Shown: piece after piece, positions 1-7,153 of the stretch | Layout of the letters: every line of letters starts with the position of its first letter | Position numbering within the stretch: position 1 is the first letter of the stretch | Source of the DNA: a virus | Lineage: Duplodnaviria > Heunggongvirae > Uroviricota > Caudoviricetes | Length of the DNA: 7,153 nt | Reading direction: 5' to 3' (one strand) | IMG/VR virus record: IMGVR_UViG_2547132272_000010 | Location: 1 to 7,153 of that record | Translations under genes and position numbers: made by a program | The notes under the pieces: generated by a model | Told to the model about the DNA's origin: nothing | The model's database searches: none | What the model saw: the letters and a program-made list of their open reading frames with translations, nothing else

Positions 1-22
1 CTAAATCAGTAAGTTGGCAGCA

Positions 23-295
23 TCACCCAATAACAGTATACTTTTTCATCACAATATCATCTTTCGAAGCATGAGAAATAATCTGGTTTGATAAAGTATA
101 CTTAAAAAATTTAGCAATATCTGGAGCGATAGGAGCTTTAATGATTTTAAAATCGAATTTATCAACAACTCTTGCGGTTCTACTCATACCCGCTTTAAGA
201 TGTCTAGTAATGAAATACAACGATATTTTCGCCGCATCATCATCCTTAAGTTGCTCAGCATACTCTAATAATTCTTCAAGCTTTAACATTTTCAT
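23..295 (-). CDS. Hypothetical 90-aa soluble protein; second gene of the AT-rich two-gene cargo operon
   Basis: ATG at 295-293 (verified), stop TGA at 25-23. Start overlaps the upstream gene stop in an ATGA arrangement (292-295), implying translational coupling. Same AT-rich composition as the upstream gene. No recognisable motif. Confidence 0.6.
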   Translation of the reverse strand: MKMLKLEELLEYAEQLKDDDAAKISLYFITRHLKAGMSRTARVVDKFDFKIIKAPIAPDIAKFFKYTLSNQIISHASKDDIVMKKYTVIG

Positions 296-906
296 TCCTT
301 ATGGGATTCAGCATAAAAAAGTTTTGGGCCCACGTCCTCAACATCAAGAAGATCATCTTCCTCCAAATACTTTGATTTAGTCAAAACCATACCAGTGCGT
401 TTTTTGTCGCTTTCTAAATCCAAATATGTAACTTGATATAAAGTATAATTAATACTTATTGTAGGATTTATAAGTATCATGCTTGAATTAATATATATTA
501 AAGCCGTTACCGTTAACAATATTGCTATTGGTATAACATTAGTTAAAGTGGATAGATCCTGAAATACAAACGGAATTATATATGTAAAAAGATAGCTTAT
601 TGATTCATTGTTTTTATTTTCAATATCTATAACTCTTACAGTTCTACCACTAGTGGCGCATCGACGTTTTATATTTTTTAAAAAAATTGTTAATCCTACA
701 ATACCAAATAATGATAATACACCAATGACACTGACCGCGCCAAAGTATTTAAAGAAAATAGTTAATGATTCAACACTTATACCTTTCCAATTTAAATAGC
801 TTCTATAAGTATACAATTGCACAAAACACATGATAAAGAATAGGGGAAGGTATGACACTATAAATAGCGAAACTCTAGCACCTAAATGTAGTTTATTTAC
901 TCTCAT
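292..906 (-). CDS. Hypothetical 204-aa integral membrane protein with four predicted TM helices and an acidic C-terminal tail; first gene of the AT-rich cargo operon
   Basis: ATG at 906-904 (verified). Hydrophobic stretches at about residues 12-32, 55-76, 102-115 and 123-147, then a hydrophilic tail rich in E/D/K. Very AT-rich codon usage unlike the neighbouring prophage genes. No catalytic motif recognised. Confidence 0.65.
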   Translation of the reverse strand: MRVNKLHLGARVSLFIVSYLPLFFIMCFVQLYTYRSYLNWKGISVESLTIFFKYFGAVSVIGVLSLFGIVGLTIFLKNIKRRCATSGRTVRVIDIENKNNESISYLFTYIIPFVFQDLSTLTNVIPIAILLTVTALIYINSSMILINPTISINYTLYQVTYLDLESDKKRTGMVLTKSKYLEEDDLLDVEDVGPKLFYAESHKE

Positions 907-1168
907 AACTACCCCACAGCCTACACGTCTAGTATTTTATGTTATTTCGAATAATTATGCATCAGATTACCATCCTACAATTGTGCATAAAACGAGCATT
1001 TTGCTGATTTTTCTGCGGATGCCTGAGACAGACAACCTCAAGCACCCGCAGCAATTCTACTTAACTCTCCTTTTCCCGCAAACCGTTTTTATCCCCATCG
1101 GCAAATCGAATACACCACCAGCGCCACCGCCATCGCAATTCCTACCGTGGTGAATGCCTCAGGCCGGG

Positions 1169-1792
1169 TCATTGATTCACCTCCTGCGGTGGTTCCGGTA
1201 GCGGCATCCAGTGAGTTGAGCTCTCTACTTCGACGCCGTCTTTGTCCACAAAAGCCATCTTATTCCCGCCACGAGTGGGGCAAAAAACCTTATCCCATGA
1301 ACCGGGGAATACATTCCCGAGATCATCGCGAAGAATCACATCGCAATATTCAGCAGGAACTGCATCACTACAGCTTATCCAGCCAGCCGGAGTTCCCGGG
1401 GAGCTGGTTGACGTTTCCGAGATTTCCCGAAAATTGTTGGTTGACGAATTCTTATTTTCCCGGAAGTTTCCGGCCTGAAGCATGGCGACGCGGCAGGCGT
1501 TCCAGCCATCAGCATATGTTTCAGTTACACCGTCGAGATGACAAGTAAGCAAATCCATTTCATCAGGCACTACCATCGCTGGCGGCGCTGCGTAAAGCGG
1601 TGTTATTTCTGCCCGAAAGTCACCTATTTCATGCAGTCGCACACACCGCTCGACTTCTGCTTTGTCAGAATACATAGTGGTGAACGTATTATATTCATTG
1701 TCAATTTGCGTGAAGGTTGCCTTCCACGCCACTGGCTCTGCTTCCAGTGATGCCAGTGCTATTTTGAATAACTCGCACTCTACCCATGCCAT
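1169..1792 (-). CDS. DUF551-domain phage protein (C-terminal ...GWIS...THWMPLPEPP motif)
   Basis: C-terminal HWMPLPEPP motif typical of DUF551 proteins in enterobacterial prophages. The ORF track extends to 1963 but that start is TTG, lacks an RBS and overlaps the 72-aa ORF; the first in-frame ATG is at 1792-1790. An N-terminal extension (to 1963) cannot be excluded. Confidence 0.65.
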   Translation of the reverse strand: MAWVECELFKIALASLEAEPVAWKATFTQIDNEYNTFTTMYSDKAEVERCVRLHEIGDFRAEITPLYAAPPAMVVPDEMDLLTCHLDGVTETYADGWNACRVAMLQAGNFRENKNSSTNNFREISETSTSSPGTPAGWISCSDAVPAEYCDVILRDDLGNVFPGSWDKVFCPTRGGNKMAFVDKDGVEVESSTHWMPLPEPPQEVNQ

Positions 1793-1874
1793 CTCTGAAT
1801 TGGGGTGACATTTCGCAACCGCTATTTTTAATTTGGCTTCTTCAATTAATTGTTCTTTGGTTAATTCAGTTATT

Positions 1875-2093
1875 TCAGTTTTCCTTATATGGATTAATTT
1901 TGTTGTGTAGCGCCCTGAATGGTTCCCATACCATATCGATATACAGTTCAACAATCGGCTCAAATATTTTTCCGATTATCCAAATCAGAAACAGCAGGTT
2001 TATCGGTATCATCAACACGATAAACAGAATGAGAAACAGAAATTCTGTTGTTCTACTCTTTCGCGGATATTTTTTTCTAAATAATGTGACCAT
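1875..2093 (-). CDS. Small (72 aa) single-pass membrane protein in an AT-rich islet; possible moron
   Basis: ATG at 2093-2091 (verified). Basic N-terminus (RKKYPRKSR) followed by a ~24-residue hydrophobic helix, consistent with the positive-inside rule. Weak RBS; AT-richness inflates hydrophobic ORFs, so confidence is modest. Confidence 0.4.
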   Translation of the reverse strand: MVTLFRKKYPRKSRTTEFLFLILFIVLMIPINLLFLIWIIGKIFEPIVELYIDMVWEPFRALHNKINPYKEN

Positions 2094-2187
2094 TCATTAC
2101 CGCCCTTTCAGGCGGCCTCCCGATGTTCTGAGGGTGCAGAAATCCCTCCGGTTAAGGATTAAATTTTATTTACAACACTAAATTTAA

Positions 2188-2742
2188 TTATTCAGGCGCG
2201 CGAATCTGTTCCGCACAATGCAACAATGCTTCTGTCACTTCCTTAAGCGTTACGGTATCGGCATCATCCAGTCCTGCAACTTTTGCGTGCCTGACAAACG
2301 CCGCGCGAAGCTCGTTAAACGCCACCGCCCGTACATCAGCCAGGAAAGCATCTGTAGCCGAGGTTTGCGGCATACCTCCGTCTGTTGCGCAGATATACGC
2401 ATCAGATAGTTCATCCTGCTCGCCATCAAACACGTAGCAACTCTGTACGATAAATTTATTCAGCTCCGCATTCTCCGCCGCAAGTGCAGCAAGATTAGTC
2501 TCCAGCTCTGCAATGCGTTTGCTTTGGGCTTCCCGTTCATCAAGCACTGCCAGCACGGTAGCCGGATTGGCTGCTGCTATGAATCGCTTATTGGCGCGAT
2601 TATCTGGTCCTGAGCATGATGCTATGTAGTAATTTGCGTTCAGTCCGGCATCAGCAATTAACCCATAATCATCAGAACACCATTCGCCAGGGGTTGCATT
2701 TTCTGCCGCCATTCGCAGTGCCTGGTAATTAATGTTGCTCAC
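2188..2742 (-). CDS. ead/Ea22-like family phage protein
   Basis: N-terminal ...[18 protein letters not shown]... resembles the ead/Ea22-like family, with a coiled-coil-like middle ([20 protein letters not shown]). The ORF-track start at 2772 is TTG; GTG at 2742-2740 is preceded by AGGAGG at good spacing and is preferred; ATG at 2712 is an alternative. Overlaps the upstream gene end. Confidence 0.65.
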
Positions 2743-3472
2743 TGGTTTCCTCCTGGCAAAGCTGGGCGACAATATCGCGATATTTATTCAGCTCCCGCAG
2801 CGCGCCACAGACTCGCTCCCATTTCCGGATATCACTTTTCGCCCGACGCAGTTCGCGGTTTGCCTGTCGCAGCGATGGCAGAACCAGATTATCCACTCGC
2901 TTCTCAAGCGGCTGCACAATGTCCGCCACAGTTTCTGTTTTAATATCTTCCTGTGTTGCAGCTTCCTGTACTGGTAACGCAACACATGCAGGCTGAGGAA
3001 AGGCTTTACCATCAGTTTCCGCTACCGATGCCGTTTTCGGCTCTGCTGGTAAATTACCGCCCGGCATGCAGTAACGAAATTTACCGTTCTGATTAACACG
3101 AATCAGACGACCTTTGCTGATTGCCATTGCCAGCGTTGAAGCCACTTTGCGGGATGTTGTACCGAACAGCGTAGCCAGTTCATCCGCCGTTTGTGATCCG
3201 CGTTGTTCAATCGTCGCGGTTAAATCGCACTCTGAGATTTTCGCTACTGTCGCCGTGGTGGTTTCTTCCGGCTGTTCTTCTGGCGCTGGCTGTTCCTGCT
3301 GAACGTTGTTATCAGCCACACGCCAGGTGTATACGCTTTTATCAACGAAGCCAGCCTTTTTCAGTTCCCACAGCTCGTTCAGTACTTCTTCACGACTGAT
3401 ATCAAGTCGCGCAGCCAGCTCTACCGACGTGGCTTTTCCCATCGCTTTCAGTGCGTCAAAAACAGTCTCCAT
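2729..3472 (-). CDS. Phage winged-helix protein, DUF1627-like (two wHTH-like segments separated by an acidic/Q-rich linker)
   Basis: ATG at 3472-3470 (verified), preceded by GGGAGG. N-terminal ...[28 protein letters not shown]... and a second HTH-like ...[28 protein letters not shown]... Family name is from memory, not a search. Confidence 0.7.
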
Positions 3473-3492
3473 AAATTTCCTCCCGGTAAAAA

Positions 3493-4239
3493 TTACTTTT
3501 CAATACCTGGCTGACCAACATTCGGGCGCCAGCTCTCCCAGTTAAAATTCACCCAGCGCCCGCCGTTCATGGTCATGCGATCCATAATCCGCTCGCCGAG
3601 CAATGTTTTCATGGCCTCATAGTTCAGGTTTGTCAGCATTCCCACGCTACGCATCGACGCTGTCCGTCGATCAATAATCTGGTGCAGTACCACCTGCTCG
3701 TTTTTCGTCTCGCGCTGAATGCCAATTTCATCAAGAACCAGCAGCTCCACTTCGCACAGTTCCCGCAAAAATTTTTCGCCTGACTGCCCGTCGTCATAGC
3801 TGGCGTGCAGGGCGCTCATAACATCAGCCACGGTAACCACAATCACTGTCTGACCGTCTTTCAGCAGGCGATTCCCGATAGCTGCCGCTAAGTGATTCTT
3901 CCCGGTACCAGGTTTTCCGCTGAATGCAAAATTTGTACACCCGGTCATCAGTTCATCGGCGATGGATTTCGCCTGGCTTAACGCGTATCGCTGGCCGTCG
4001 TTCTGCACCTGGTAATTCGCAAACGAGCATTTACGGTGCAACGGCTGGATGCCTGAGCGATTCAGAATTTTTTCCACCCGCAACTGGCGATTCAGGCGGT
4101 TGATCTCCTCGCTACGTTTCTGGCCTTCAGCAAGTTGCCACTCGCGCCACTCCGCAACCGTTCTGAATGGAGCGGTTACATGTGGTGGGGCCAGTCTGCG
4201 GATACGCTCCAGAACGCCTCCTGTCGCAATATTTTTCAT
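3493..4239 (-). CDS. ydaV: DnaC-like replicative helicase loader (phage P-equivalent), AAA+ ATPase
   Basis: 248 aa; Walker [18 protein letters not shown] (the GKN variant also found in E. coli DnaC), Walker B LLVLDEIG, and a C-terminus closely resembling DnaC (...GERIMDRM...). ATG at 4239-4237 (verified) with an upstream AGGGGG. Confidence 0.88.
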
Positions 4240-4245
4240 GGTCTG

Positions 4246-5034
4246 TTACCCCCTGAAGCCTGGCGGGATCGCACTGTCCGGCAACGAGACGGTGTTAACC
4301 TGTCGGAGCAACGTCTCAGGCCGAACACCTTTCGGCGCGAACAGGCCCTGGTATTCATTGGCGATGCTGTGTCGAATCACCTGCTCAGGTGTAAAACCCT
4401 GCTGACGGAATTTTTCCAGTTCCCGTATCGCCCCGTTAGCGCCCTGCTCCGTTCGAATCGGTTTTCGCAATGCCTGTCTGAACCGGACCCACTCATGCCA
4501 GAGTGTTTCCGGCAACCAATCGGGCAGCTCAATAGCCTCCGGCTCGAATTTTTTAGACGCTCGTTTTTGGCGAGGGGGATTTAGGGGGAGATCAGTATTT
4601 AGATCTTCCTCTTCCTCTTCCTCTGGTAACGCTTTTTGATCCGTTTGTGTAACGCCGGCAGCGTTACCTTTTCGTTTCAGTTCACGTATTTTTGTAACTC
4701 GCTCGTTTGTAACCGCCCGTTTTTTAGAGCTTTTTCCGTTATGGCGTTCAAAGTTAGGTAGAGAAAGCCCAACGTCATTTTCGACCAGCCATCCAACCTG
4801 AATTAACGCATCAGCAAAACCAGCCATAAAAGTGATGCGATCTATTGCACTTTTTGTAACGCCGCGAGCGTTACAATCTGCATTACCGTCTATCATTTGT
4901 TGATCCGCCCATGCCCAGAAGCGAATAACCTTCCCTAATGCGGCATCTGGATCAATATTCAGAATCTCAGCAAGCCTGAATATTTCCGGCTTATCCGGCG
5001 TAATAACCTCGAGCTTTATCCAGTTTGAAGCCAT
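4246..5034 (-). CDS. ydaU: YdaU-like replication initiation protein (lambda O-equivalent), two domains joined by an EEEEEE linker
   Basis: Sits between the CII-like gene and the DnaC-like loader, as O sits before P. ATG at 5034-5032 (verified), AAGGTGA RBS. Contains internal 21-bp palindromes and an acidic linker, as in ori-within-O genes. Family assignment is by synteny and memory. Confidence 0.75.
   Translation of the reverse strand: MASNWIKLEVITPDKPEIFRLAEILNIDPDAALGKVIRFWAWADQQMIDGNADCNARGVTKSAIDRITFMAGFADALIQVGWLVENDVGLSLPNFERHNGKSSKKRAVTNERVTKIRELKRKGNAAGVTQTDQKALPEEEEEEDLNTDLPLNPPRQKRASKKFEPEAIELPDWLPETLWHEWVRFRQALRKPIRTEQGANGAIRELEKFRQQGFTPEQVIRHSIANEYQGLFAPKGVRPETLLRQVNTVSLPDSAIPPGFRG
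4648..4668. repeat. 21-bp palindrome TGTAACGC-CGGCA-GCGTTAC(C), copy 1, inside the ydaU-like gene
   Basis: Read directly from the sequence. Flanked by further GTAACGC / TTGTAAC half-sites at 4626-4632, 4692-4698 and 4707-4713. Confidence 0.7.
4855..4875. repeat. 21-bp palindrome TGTAACGC-CGCGA-GCGTTACA, copy 2, inside the ydaU-like gene
   Basis: Perfect 8-bp arms; read directly from the sequence. Encodes NARGVT on the coding strand. Confidence 0.7.
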
Positions 5035-5046
5035 TTGTTTTCACCT

Positions 5047-5067
5047 TGTAACGCTCGCAGCGTTACA
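5047..5067. repeat. 21-bp palindrome TGTAACGC-TCGCA-GCGTTACA, copy 3, in the ydaT-ydaU intergenic region just upstream of the ydaU-like RBS
   Basis: Perfect 8-bp arms; lies about 13 nt upstream of the ydaU-like start codon, adjacent to the AAGGTGA RBS. Confidence 0.7.
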
Positions 5068-5111
5068 TTTAACTGATACCGAACAAAACAATCCGGCACG
5101 ATTAATTTCAA

Positions 5112-5534
5112 TCAATGCACTACGACAGAATCACCGGACGACCCACCACCGCTGAAATGTGCTTTCCGGTAAACGGCCTGGACTGCATCATCATGCGCAT
5201 CAATTGCCGTACTCAACGCTTCCTGCGCCGCCAGTAATGCACGGCGTTCCAGGGTATCGAAGATGCAGAGTCGGTGACGCAGCTCGCGCGGAAGAATTGC
5301 CAGAACCGCAGGGATCAGTGTCTGAATTTTTTCCCTTTGCGCTTTCGTTTCACCTTTTAACCAACGGTGATAGATGTTCTGCTGATTATTCCAGTCCTTG
5401 CCTGGTACCAGGGGCAATTCGCCGCCCCCCTGGCGCAGATATTCTTCAGTAATTGCATTGGCTACCCATGCCTGCCCTTTTTCAGCGGCCAGGGCTAACA
5501 GCACTGATTCGATGTGCTCATGCCTGATTTTCAT
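5112..5534 (-). CDS. ydaT: YdaT (140 aa), CII-like regulator / reported toxin of Rac-type prophages
   Basis: 140 aa, matching YdaT length; immediately downstream of the Cro-like gene and overlapping it by 17 nt. ATG at 5534-5532 (verified) with AGGAG about 9 nt upstream. Confidence 0.82.
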   Translation of the reverse strand: MKIRHEHIESVLLALAAEKGQAWVANAITEEYLRQGGGELPLVPGKDWNNQQNIYHRWLKGETKAQREKIQTLIPAVLAILPRELRHRLCIFDTLERRALLAAQEALSTAIDAHDDAVQAVYRKAHFSGGGSSGDSVVVH

Positions 5535-5793
5535 GAATCAACTCCTGTGCATTTTGTGTGTTAGCCTTACATCCAACAGGTAAACCATCGGTCGGATTCG
5601 GGTAGATATCAGGCCGGAGTTCATGAGGTGTAACCTCGAAATTCGTAGCCTCTGCGATACGCAATACCTTTTCAGGGCTTAACTGACTACGTCCAGTAGC
5701 AACGAGGCTAATCATTGATTGCGAACAACCAGCCAGCGCGGCCAAACAAGACTGTCGTACACGATTTTTTTTCAAATATTCATCTAATGTCAT
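5518..5793 (-). CDS. ydaS: YdaS, Cro-like HTH regulator (XRE/YdaS family)
   Basis: HTH segment QSCLAALAGCSQSMISLVATGRSQ and a ...TPHELRPDIYP... motif. The ORF-track start (ATG 5832) has no RBS; the in-frame ATG at 5793-5791 is preceded by AAGGTGA, so the shorter 91-aa form is called. Divergent from the repressor gene. Confidence 0.8.
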   Translation of the reverse strand: MTLDEYLKKNRVRQSCLAALAGCSQSMISLVATGRSQLSPEKVLRIAEATNFEVTPHELRPDIYPNPTDGLPVGCKANTQNAQELIHENQA

Positions 5794-5897
5794 AAGGGTC
5801 ACCTTAGTAATATTCGCCAAAATATTAACCATACTAATTTAAATGATCAATACTTATATCAGTTTGAGATTATGAGCTGTGTTCATAAGATGGTGGT
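5794..5897. promoter_or_regulatory. Divergent control region between ydaS (-) and racR (+), with two inverted-repeat operator candidates and predicted promoters
   Basis: IR1 TAATATT-N6-AATATTA at 5808-5827; IR2 TTATGA-N7-TCATAA at 5870-5888. Predicted minus-strand promoter for ydaS: -35 TTGATC (complement of 5845-5850), 17-nt spacer, -10 TAATAT (complement of 5822-5827), overlapping IR1. Possible racR promoter: TTGAGA-like -35 near 5865-5870 and TAAGAT-like -10 near 5887-5892. Confidence 0.5.
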
Positions 5898-6362
5898 ATG
5901 AGAAGAAAACGCGAAGAAATCGCATCGCCAGAAGCTACGCAGCGTCTACGCGGAATATGGGATGCAAAAAAAAGAGAGCTCAAATTGACTCAGGAGCTTG
6001 CTGCCGAGCTAATGGGCTTTGAGACGCAATCTACGGTTAGCCACTATCTCAACGGAAAGGCTCCACTTAACACTGATGCGGCATTAAAATTCGCAGTATT
6101 GCTAAGAGTTAAGCCTGAAGACTTGAGGCCTGATTTAGCTGATCTGATGAATTACGTCCGTTCATCTGGAACTTATGACGAAAGTTTCGAAGGCGAAGGG
6201 TGGCGGATGGTTAACAAGCAACAAGCTGATTTACTGGATCTTTTTGATATCCTCCCCGAATCAGAAAAAGCAAAACTAATCGAAAGGCTTAAAGGCCAGA
6301 ATGAACTCTACAAAGAAGCGTTTGAAAATATGCTGGCAGCTCAGAAACGCATGAAGAAATAG
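5898..6362 (+). CDS. racR: RacR-like prophage repressor (CI-equivalent), HTH protein
   Basis: 154 aa; HTH-like segment LTQELAAELMGFETQSTVSHYLNGK. Divergent from ydaS-ydaT, the classic Rac immunity arrangement. ATG at 5898 with stop TAG at 6360-6362, followed by an intrinsic terminator. Confidence 0.82.
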   Translation: MRRKREEIASPEATQRLRGIWDAKKRELKLTQELAAELMGFETQSTVSHYLNGKAPLNTDAALKFAVLLRVKPEDLRPDLADLMNYVRSSGTYDESFEGEGWRMVNKQQADLLDLFDILPESEKAKLIERLKGQNELYKEAFENMLAAQKRMKK

Positions 6363-6382
6363 CCCCCACTACCTCGTAACTA

Positions 6383-6407
6383 AACCGCCATCCCTGGCGG
6401 TTTTTTT
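6383..6407 (+). terminator. Rho-independent terminator downstream of racR
   Basis: Perfect 8-bp stem AACCGCCA / TGGCGGTT (6383-6390 with 6395-6402), 4-nt loop TCCC, followed by a T7 run (6401-6407). Confidence 0.85.
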
Positions 6408-6477
6408 GTCCCCTGCGCCCCCATCGCCTTACTTTTTTATCAAAAAAAACACTAAAATTTTCATTAGGATAGTACAT

Positions 6478-6540
6478 TTTTATCAACAAAATGCATATTT
6501 ATGTTGATCATCAATATGAATATAACTAATATTATTGCAG
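6478..6540 (+). promoter_or_regulatory. Putative promoter and operator for the ydaG-ydaF small-gene pair
   Basis: -35 TTGATC (6504-6509), 17-nt spacer, -10 TAATAT (6527-6532), the same hexamer pair as the predicted ydaS promoter. Inverted repeat ATCAACA-N13-TGTTGAT (6482-6508) overlaps the -35. AT-rich UP-like tract upstream. Inferred by eye. Confidence 0.35.
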
Positions 6541-6598
6541 AAGCAGCACGGCGCTGTAGGTTTTAGTTCCGCCACCCGGCGTTAAGGGGAGAGATAAG

Positions 6599-6733
6599 AT
6601 GGTGCATTACGAAGTAGTTCAGTATTTGATGGATTGTTGCGGTATCACTTACAACCAGGCTGTGCAGGCTTTACGCAGCAACGACTGGGATCTCTGGCAG
6701 GCAGAAGCCTCTATCCGCAACAACAAAATGTGA
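6599..6733 (+). CDS. ydaG: YdaG-like small protein (44 aa)
   Basis: ATG at 6599, stop TGA at 6731-6733; SD AAGGGGAG about 8 nt upstream. Translation MVHYEVVQYLMDCCGITYNQAVQALRSNDWDLWQAEASIRNNKM. Absent from the ORF track (below its size cutoff). Position downstream of racR matches Rac synteny. Confidence 0.65.
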   Translation: MVHYEVVQYLMDCCGITYNQAVQALRSNDWDLWQAEASIRNNKM

Positions 6734-6743
6734 GGTGCGAAAA

Positions 6744-6896
6744 ATGCAAAAAATCGACCTCGGCAATAACGAATCCCAGGTGTGCGGCGTGTTCCCCAAC
6801 CAGGATGGAACGTTCACCGCCATGACTTATACCAAAAGCAAAACATTTAAAACAGAAACAGGCGCACGTCGCTGGCTTGCCAGAAATACTTGCTAA
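6744..6896 (+). CDS. ydaF: YdaF-like small protein (50 aa)
   Basis: ATG at 6744, stop TAA at 6894-6896; SD GAGGTG 5 nt upstream. Translation MQKIDLGNNESQVCGVFPNQDGTFTAMTYTKSKTFKTETGARRWLARNTC. The supplied 6634..6825 ORF is in a different frame and lacks an RBS. Confidence 0.65.
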   Translation: MQKIDLGNNESQVCGVFPNQDGTFTAMTYTKSKTFKTETGARRWLARNTC

Positions 6897-7153
6897 TCCA
6901 TTATTTGGATTAATTCAATATTCTCGCTGTAGGGGTATAGCAGAAACCACCAAAGCCCGGAGGTGGTGAAATAAAACCGGGCACAACACGAAGGCGCATT
7001 TCCGATATCCATAAAGAGTCGGTCTTGTCTGTTAAATTTAAATGGTGGGAGTGCGCCTCCGGTTGTGAATAACAACACTGCTGTGTGTAGTCTTGGCGGC
7101 ATCAGTTTTTTCTTGAAGTTCGACTGATGTCCGCCCTTTTTAAAGTGAATTTT
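6893..7153 (-). CDS. 3' end of a minus-strand ORF running off the right edge; possibly a sieB-like superinfection-exclusion gene (partial)
   Basis: The reading frame is open from the window edge (7153) to stop TGA at 6895-6893, with no stop in my hand translation. Convergent with ydaF, stop codons overlapping. Identity as sieB is from Rac synteny only; the translation is not clearly protein-like. Confidence 0.3.
   Translation of the reverse strand, partial: KIHFKKGGHQSNFKKKLMPPRLHTAVLLFTTGGALPPFKFNRQDRLFMDIGNAPSCCARFYFTTSGLWWFLLYPYSENIELIQIMD

Follow-up and report, generated by a model that had tools for sequence, protein, structure and literature searches.

The AT-rich patch at positions 1793–2187 of the window (the whole 7153-nucleotide stretch of viral DNA that was analyzed) contains a genuine, already catalogued gene of the DUF4014 family, which encodes a protein of 72 residues and is under purifying selection. 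Related prophages either carry the gene or lack it as one exact, gene-sized unit, with a conserved leader on one side and the DUF551 gene on the other, and the patch is probably an interchangeable accessory-gene cassette in the early operon of a Rac-like lambdoid prophage. The leader is reused in front of other genes, and its geometry suggests a split ribosome-binding site.

Results

Genomic context and base composition of the patch

The window covers the early region of a Rac-like lambdoid prophage, with its gene order running along the minus strand (Table 1). The nearest complete Escherichia coli genomes align to it over positions 1019–7153, with gaps in the accessory-gene region from DUF1627 to DUF551, and carry hokD at the place of the AT-rich DNA at 1–1018 of the window. 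A Kiwa defense system is also found in this neighborhood, which is a hotspot; the Kiwa genes lie downstream and are truly foreign.

Table 1. Features of the window discussed in the text (coordinates are positions in the window)
Feature	Coordinates	Strand	Details	Basis
Repressor gene	5898–6362	plus
cro-like gene	5518–5832	minus
ydaT	5112–5534	minus
ydaU/O-like gene	4246–5034	minus
ydaV/DnaC-like gene	3493–4239	minus
DUF1627 gene	2729–3472	minus
Ead/Ea22-like gene	2188–2772	minus	upstream neighbor of the 72-aa ORF	Pfam PF13935, E = 8.5e-19
AT-rich spacer	2149–2187	minus	from the Ea22-like stop (2188–2190) to the leader	20.5% G+C
Conserved 67-nt leader	2094–2160	minus	AAUCCUUAACC, hairpin 1, GGAG, hairpin 2, 5–6 nt, AUG
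Hairpin 1	2130–2148	minus	GAGGG, 9-nt loop, CCCUC	−7.2 kcal/mol
Shine–Dalgarno sequence	2117–2122	minus	GGGAGG (AGGAGG in most relatives)	read from the sequence
Hairpin 2	2099–2116	minus	6–7 bp G+C-rich stem, GAAA tetraloop, between Shine–Dalgarno and AUG
DUF4014 gene	1875–2093	minus	72 aa plus TGA stop	ORF list, Pfam PF13198, PHROG 1832
A7 run	2070–2076	minus	codons 6–8 of DUF4014, frameshift-prone	A6 in 19 of about 205 loci
ATA at the ancestral DUF551 ATG position	1871–1873	minus	one base past the DUF4014 stop	alignment of relatives
DUF551 gene	1169 to about 1873	minus		Pfam DUF551, E = 1.6e-18
DUF551 from the first remaining in-frame ATG (1790–1792)	1169–1792	minus	207 aa	ancestral frame reaches 1873

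The initial annotation described an AT-rich patch of ~400 bp amid phage genes of ~50% G+C, and the measured values bear this out: the G+C content is 36.2% over 1793–2187, compared with 50.2% in the remainder of DUF551 (1169–1792) and 51.3% over 2188–5534. Within the patch, G+C amounts to 34.7% in the 72-aa coding sequence (1875–2093), 32.9% in the first 27 codons of the DUF551 frame (1793–1874) and 58% in the G+C-rich, structured part of the leader (2094–2148). The conserved leader begins at 2160 and overlaps the AT-rich spacer at 2149–2160, and the spacer varies among relatives that have different upstream genes. The further description of the patch as an islet does not hold for its composition, however. 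G+C at the first, second and third codon positions of the 72-aa gene is 0.37, 0.25 and 0.425, respectively, and the last value is near the 0.46–0.49 of the neighboring genes, in contrast to the 0.22–0.28 of the downstream Kiwa genes. The 72-residue protein contains 11 I, 10 L, 7 F, 6 K and 4 N, so the low G+C of the patch results from a protein rich in these residues, acting through codon positions 1 and 2, together with the AT-rich spacer. The patch is no compositional island, and its third-position composition is not foreign.

Identity of the 72-aa frame

The 72-aa ORF matches the Pfam family DUF4014 (PF13198) over its full length (residues 1–72 on profile positions 1–72) with 83.3 bits and E = 1.6e-23, where the gathering cut-off is 23.2 bits, and it matches PHROG 1832 with 131 bits and E = 2.4e-38. 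It has 107 close homologues, and 48 blocks of an assembly collection contain the identical protein; the gene itself is not new, the window protein being identical to proteins in public assemblies. Across 39 distinct alleles, the pN/pS of the DUF4014 frame is 0.24, the lowest of the six frames.

As two alternative ORFs are open in the window, we considered that the 72-aa frame might be spurious and the real gene either DUF551 read from a TTG at 1963 or a plus-strand ORF of 131 aa (1786–2181). The antisense ORF is open in 36 of the 39 alleles with a pN/pS of 0.33, but both properties are expected from the geometry, since its third codon positions are common with those of the sense frame and just four sense codon contexts could produce an antisense stop; the antisense ORF has no other support, and the Pfam match belongs to the sense frame. 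The extension of the DUF551 frame overlaps DUF4014 in this arrangement only, DUF551 in relatives begins one base past the DUF4014 stop, and the whole cassette is missing as a unit in E. coli RM11911 (see below). A longer DUF551 gene starting at 1963, which the initial annotation had named as the outcome that would overturn its proposal, is ruled out by the starts in relatives, the empty site in RM11911 and the pN/pS values, and it is extremely unlikely that the 72-aa frame is spurious.

The run of adenines near the start of the gene is A6 in 19 of about 205 loci (~9%), where the frame is truncated to 26 codons; the gene is dispensable, because it is frameshifted in about this proportion of the sampled loci.

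Predicted topology, conservation and distribution of the protein

Residues 1–17 of the 72-aa protein include six K/R and one D/E, residues 18–41 form a 24-residue transmembrane segment with zero charged residues and a 19-residue Kyte–Doolittle maximum of 3.08, and residues 42–72 constitute a 31-residue amphipathic tail. By the positive-inside rule, the product is predicted to be a bitopic inner-membrane protein of N-in/C-out orientation with its acidic amphipathic tail in the periplasm, and AlphaFold2 returns a single long helix over residues 14–66 (pLDDT 83). The full-length Pfam match, the hydropathy and the pN/pS thus agree with the single-pass membrane protein with a basic N terminus that had been read from the ORF. 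Down to the 50%-identical homologues in Salmonella phages, 28 columns are invariant, including K7, Y9-P10-R11, R14 and E17 in the N-terminal part; L19, F20, L23, F24, L27, P30, W38 and G41 in the membrane part; and E45, E49, Y51, W56, F59, L62-H63-N64-K65, N67-P68-Y69 and E71 in the tail. Invariant residues on both sides of the membrane as well as inside it suggest specific contacts, not a mere membrane anchor.

The DUF4014 family is narrow, and temperate phages that infect Escherichia, Shigella or Salmonella are the only ones to carry it. When 1.84 billion representative proteins were searched exhaustively with a profile, 22 reached E ≤ 1e-3, all of which belong to the same narrow family or are fragments or fusions of DUF4014, and a scan of one genome per species has E. 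coli, Shigella and one 427-bp Xanthomonas contig among the matches listed, the last probably contamination. Phage homologues occur in 933W (L0066/L0067 region) and many other Stx phages, ArgO145, D6, HK225, ES18 (gp39), epsilon34, g341c (gp23) and epsilon15 (gp46); g341c gp23 and epsilon15 gp46 are 51% identical to the window protein (over 72 residues for gp46). The members from epsilon15, 933W, g341c and ES18 match the window protein in their length of 72 aa and in the topology signature, and the motifs KxYPRxSR, LF..LF..L..P in the transmembrane segment, E45/E49/Y51/W56/F59 and LHNKxNPY are common to DUF4014 members and the window protein. In the known phages and the window alike, the gene lies behind an Ead/Ea22-like gene and ahead of a DUF551 or HNH gene. 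The coding sequence alone matches at least 634 of 5426 complete E. coli genomes by megablast (at least 12%); a count of 2504 of 5426 genomes was rejected as a measure of gene prevalence, as the query also held the leader and the Ea22 end.

Presence and absence of the cassette in related prophages

The comparison across related prophages that the initial annotation had proposed gave a clean result in support of the 72-aa frame. An exact empty site, in which the leader runs straight into DUF551 (...GGGCGGTAATGAAAAATGACTGAATTAACC...), is present in E. coli RM11911, which is among the three nearest relatives with complete genomes; in the window and in strain JB2, the 72-aa gene lies precisely between the leader and DUF551 points that are joined in RM11911. 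TGA(A)ATG-like microhomology is present at both ends of the cassette, which may thus be gained and lost by recombination at the stop–start linkers. The arrangement TGA-N-ATG, in which a single base separates the DUF4014 stop from the start of the next gene, was present in all loci examined, whichever gene follows, and at least 10 different N-termini were found downstream of the stop. DUF4014 occurs in early-right contexts, behind replication genes as in the window, and in early-left contexts, behind recombination genes and before xis/int.

The product had been likened to moron-type exclusion or lysis-timing factors. A moron-type islet would be acquired AT-rich DNA with its own expression signals, encoding a lysogen membrane protein that excludes phages or tunes lysis, and the low overall G+C, the predicted small bitopic membrane protein, the presence/absence polymorphism and the location in a hotspot that also houses Kiwa would all suit it. 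However, scans of 1600–2500 on either strand found no sigma-70-like promoter and no intrinsic terminator, and the stop of the gene is coupled to the next start by TGA-N-ATG, so the locus lacks moron anatomy. The third-position G+C is likewise normal, the gene is on the early-operon strand and translationally coupled within the operon, and the protein has no match to PADLOC defense families at E ≤ 0.01. The lysis genes are far away: DUF4014 belongs to the early operon, with the replication genes on one side of it and DUF551 on the other, not to the late lysis cassette (endolysin, spanin), and nothing ties it to that cassette. We consider the moron-type origin improbable. DUF4014 is, instead, an operon-embedded early accessory gene of the 'ea/nin' kind, as follows from its normal third-position G+C, the lack of a promoter or terminator, the TGA-N-ATG junction and its early-operon contexts.

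The start codon of DUF551

The doubt that the initial annotation cast on the start of the DUF551 gene proved well founded, as the ancestral ATG is ATA in this lineage. Relatives read AAC-TGA-A-ATG-ACT-GAA across the junction, and the window has ATA at 1873–1871. Among the ~205 loci first sampled, ATA was found in the window only, the other junctions having ATG; the identical DUF4014 protein is encoded in eight further assemblies, every one of which has ATA, and a second, P22-like backbone is among them. Its occurrence in eight further assemblies and on two prophage backbones indicates that ATA is no sequencing error but a trait of the lineage that recombination has spread. The change from ATG to ATA is recent, since the 27 codons from 1873 to 1792 have remained intact. 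DUF551 must either start at the ATG at 1792, with the loss of 27 residues, or be translated weakly. Gene callers in the ATA assemblies chose the ATG equivalent to 1792 (207 aa in assembly L362, with the same start in L363) or a start further downstream, or made no call.

Structure and reuse of the 67-nt leader

The leader ahead of DUF4014 has a mean column identity of 93% across 62 distinct variants. Its Shine–Dalgarno sequence is separated from the ATG (2091–2093) by 22 nt, and all four GGAG columns are invariant in 62/62 variants. Hairpin 2, which lies in between, has the sequence CCGCCU-GAAA-GGGCGG (2100–2115), extended by a closing G.U pair to 2099–2116. In the window it has a folding energy of −12.9 kcal/mol (z = −2.8, equalled by 3 of 200 shuffles) and in the consensus −15.5 kcal/mol (z = −3.6). 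Changes in its stem are mostly C to U, with G.U kept, along with one G-C to A-U double change, and its loop variants include GGAA and GGCA (both GNRA) as well as UAAA and AAAA. Hairpin 1 is conserved in sequence, but was rejected as a supported structure, because its stability is that expected by chance (z = −1.05, equalled by 36 of 200 shuffles), no compensatory change was seen and several variants break a pair. The fraction of cells that are paired is 96.3% in hairpin 2 and 97.6% over both hairpins, against 43–51% with the partner slid. Covariation is not significant in either hairpin (160–263 of 500 shuffles reach the observed values) and is no proof of structure, so the case for structure rests on thermodynamics and conservation. 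A scan of the whole window against Rfam at E ≤ 1 gave no match in the leader. Two other readings of hairpin 2 were dropped: a nut-like boxB, as there is no boxA-like sequence upstream and the element is always at a start codon, and an intrinsic terminator, as a U-tract is absent on both strands.

Three architectures were found upstream of DUF4014. Type A, that of the window, consists of hairpin 1, AGGAGG, hairpin 2, 5–6 nt and ATG; type B has AGGAGG and hairpin 2 only, with the similarity starting just 5′ of CAGGAGG behind an unrelated gene; and type C, in 31 distinct contexts, is a conventional AAAGGAGAGTGAT-ATG junction (AAGGAG) with no hairpins. The leader is also found ahead of at least seven gene families, with a gap of 5–10 nt from hairpin to ATG each time. 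These families include a 60-aa acidic DUF7167 protein, DUF551 itself and proteins that start with MAELTK, MGITKE/MEITKE or MQEIKE, and the two families MGITKE/MEITKE have a GGAG of their own after the hairpin. In some phages the unit of GGAG plus hairpin occurs twice, ~1 kb apart, each time at a start codon. The two hairpins that the initial annotation placed upstream of the 72-aa gene therefore both exist as described, in the ribosome-binding region, but they are not private to this gene, the leader being common to at least seven families.

Discussion

A possible role for the leader

DUF4014 would be transcribed by read-through from the early rightward promoter, and its leader would form a split ribosome-binding site, in which hairpin 2 brings the strong GGAGG from 22 nt to about 6 nt from the start codon (6 nt remain once hairpin 2 folds, or 5 nt with the closing G.U pair). 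The same leader may act as a recombination joint that lets different genes swap behind it. This combination of read-through transcription, split-site translation and recombination has, in our judgment, an even chance of being correct. For the leader taken on its own, the geometry makes a split ribosome-binding site the most likely role, although we would hold to it with no more than evenly balanced confidence: the Shine–Dalgarno sequence is 22 nt from the start, farther than the roughly 15 nt past which the distance would be non-functional, and the stable hairpin would leave a functional spacing of 5–6 nt.

Split sites have been described in phage T4, where 22 nt are closed to 5 nt in gene 38 and 27 nt to 11 nt in gene 25 (PMC3014915). 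The window leader resembles these T4 genes in that a strong Shine–Dalgarno sequence is too distant from its start codon and a stable hairpin between the two would restore the spacing. In contrast to the T4 examples, this putative site is portable, as temperate enterobacterial phages have it ahead of at least seven unrelated genes; DUF4014, unlike T4 genes 38 and 25, also occurs with a conventional ribosome-binding site.

The leader may also be compared with the boundary (linker) sequences of lambdoid phages. Comparisons of the HK97/HK022 and HK620 genomes reportedly revealed short conserved boundary sequences where mosaic joints fall, and the TGA-N-ATG junctions, the AAAGGAGAGTGAT-ATG junctions and the 67-nt leader are likewise short conserved joint sequences. 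The leader differs in being longer than the typical lambdoid stop–start overlap and in containing a thermodynamically strong hairpin.

Hairpin 2 may not bridge at all. The leader could be mainly a recombination linker, the hairpin could protect the mRNA after cleavage in the AU-rich spacer or mask a weak Shine–Dalgarno sequence so as to keep a potentially toxic membrane protein low, and more than one of these could apply; a candidate for such a masked site is AAAGGG, which spans the loop and the 3′ arm of hairpin 2, and the hairpin would then be inhibitory. Many different genes are found joined to the leader on its upstream and downstream sides, covariation is not significant, an AU-rich spacer lies directly 5′ of the leader, and among the RNAalifold predictions is a UCCU:AGGA helix in which the upstream Shine–Dalgarno sequence would be sequestered, all of which are consistent with a role other than bridging. 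Since DUF4014 has 31 other contexts with no hairpin, this gene can do without the hairpin, whose conservation could be due to recombination alone; and since the MGITKE/MEITKE families carry their own GGAG after the hairpin, bridging cannot be its only purpose. Against this, the GGAG core is invariant, GGAG and hairpin are kept together in the minimal leader type and always 5–10 nt from the start codon, even when doubled, and the geometry is the same as that of T4 gene 38. Taking both sides together, we lean against the non-bridging alternatives, while granting them an appreciable chance, and retain the split ribosome-binding site as the working model.

Possible functions of the DUF4014 protein

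The product would insert in the inner membrane with its basic N terminus in the cytoplasm and its tail (E45, E49, Y51, W56, F59 and LHNK-NPY) in the periplasm, and would bind a component of the host or of an incoming phage, either at the membrane or on its periplasmic side. Its most likely effect, exerted in lytic growth rather than in the lysogen, would be to alter an envelope process (superinfection exclusion or O-antigen modification). From these features we tentatively infer a putative modulator that works by binding and affects an envelope process from the inner membrane in the course of lytic growth, while regarding this as the less probable side of the question. Small bitopic early proteins such as T4 Sp act at the periplasmic face to stop superinfecting phages. 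T4 Sp and Imm, HK97 gp15 (superinfection exclusion), Iap of D3/epsilon15 (an O-antigen polymerase inhibitor) and Gnarl1–3 are like the window protein in size class and membrane location, and also in expression from an accessory region and in a proposed action by binding rather than catalysis; the likeness is architectural only, with no sequence or fold similarity found. An HMM search against PDB sequences returned nothing significant, and Foldseek against viral models (BFVD) gave no significant fold match. In the literature, no functional study of any DUF4014 protein, of L0067 or of epsilon15 gp46 was found, and two DUF4014 peptide motifs and the terms 'DUF4014' and 'PF13198' are absent from the supplements of an accessory-gene screen (PMC12373910).

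An old label of epsilon15 gp46 would make the protein an inhibitor of a host O-antigen acetyltransferase of the AT3 family. The 51%-identical homologues in epsilon15 and g341c are both so labeled, the Gnarl1–3 proteins, small phage proteins of 40–90 aa, can alter the O-antigen unaided (PMC12373910), and the conserved periplasmic tail would suit a periplasm-facing target. Yet the epsilon15 gene sits behind an Ead/Ea22-like gene and far from the integrase, the family is found in many prophages regardless of host serotype, and RefSeq has dropped the label. The 'O-polysaccharide / sugar acetyltransferase inhibitor' labels trace to the original annotation of epsilon15 gp46, and a review states that the proposed AT3 acetyltransferase inhibitors of epsilon15 have not been investigated (PMC9558356). 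For the PHROG label 'released from the phage upon host infection', no source was found in the literature. Neither family label, 'acetyltransferase inhibitor' or 'released from the phage upon host infection', has an experimental basis that could be found in the literature, and we judge inhibition of an AT3 acetyltransferase to be unlikely. The broader assignment as a putative binding-type modulator of an envelope process is the one that we carry forward.

Implications

The gene itself is of little weight, as it is one more copy of a catalogued family. For annotation, the results mean that neither of the two labels carried by the family has experimental backing and that DUF551 in this lineage is without a canonical start. 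In the most far-reaching proposal, which we put forward as a doubtful one, the leader (GGAG, GNRA-loop hairpin, AUG) would be a portable split ribosome-binding site and a recombination joint that shuffles at least seven early accessory-gene families, and DUF4014 would be a small membrane effector acting on its own to remodel the host envelope in lytic growth, by modifying the O-antigen or by blocking the entry of phage DNA. If true, the portable split site would be the first of its kind beyond the T-even phages. The reusable leader and the presence/absence pair are modest leads: this prophage and RM11911 form a clean natural pair for the presence and absence of DUF4014, and the reused hairpin leader is a cheap target for learning how lambdoid phages translate and exchange their accessory genes.

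Downstream flank of the DUF551 gene

The AT-rich DNA that lies 3′ of the DUF551 gene is identified by its profile matches as a Kiwa anti-phage defence system (coordinates are compiled in the table). The window KwaB is broken off after codon 89, from which point the sequence continues as an IS1 terminal repeat; in relatives, KwaB is intact (340–342 aa) and is followed by hok. A 30-nt query from the IS1 end of the window has approximately 73,000 matching places in E. coli genomes, and an IS1A transposase gene adjoins one of these E. coli matches.

Features mapped in the window
Feature	Position	Strand	Remarks
IS1 end	1-27	-	IS1 terminal repeat
AT-rich DNA 3′ of the DUF551 gene	1-906	-	
KwaB N-terminus	26-295	-	match E = 4e-34, profile positions 1-87 of 339 only
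KwaA	292-906	-	match E = 1.3e-101
A7 homopolymer	2070-2076	-	codons 6-8 of DUF4014
Shine-Dalgarno sequence	2117-2122	-	
Leader 5′ end, containing the invariant UCCU	2141-2160	-	
Repressor gene	5898-6362	+	
DicF-like small RNA	7082-7136	+	Rfam RF00039

Close to the right end of the window, past the repressor gene, a DicF-like small RNA was matched at 42.8 bits (E = 6e-7), slightly under the gathering score of 48 for its family.

Junctions and reading frame of DUF4014

Unrelated genes neighbouring DUF4014, the small membrane protein gene, have in common recurrent stop-start linkers: in many loci the 5′ junction reads AAAGGAGAGTGAT-ATG and the 3′ junction AAGGAAAACTGA-N-ATG. The AAGGA ribosome-binding sequence of the next gene is encoded within the final DUF4014 codons (K-E-N). 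Near the other end of the gene, the A7 run is replaced by A6, with the frame cut to 26 codons, in 19 of the approximately 205 related loci, and some DUF4014 proteins in the database carry other, frame-shifted N-termini (MCLHYSEK..., MKHYLEK...) that return to frame at the transmembrane segment. A DUF4014 fragment with 73% identity was also found on a 427-bp contig of a Xanthomonas pisi assembly (L089), most likely as enterobacterial contamination of that assembly.

Variation in the conserved leader and the start codons behind it

RNAalifold paired the Shine-Dalgarno AGGA with the invariant UCCU at the 5′ end of the leader, in a helix that encloses hairpin 1; the modeled pairing is possibly a sequestering helix. 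In four loci (L221, L250, L283 and L290), the unit of GGAG and hairpin 2 occurs in two copies per phage with ~1064 nt between them, both immediately 5′ of a start codon.

In a further locus (L254), the leader is followed by AATAAAAATAGCTGAA, with ATG changed to ATA at the start of a MAELTK-family gene. This is a second, independent ATG-to-ATA change, in another leader-driven gene; leader-driven cassettes may repeatedly lose their start codon or tolerate ATA in its place.
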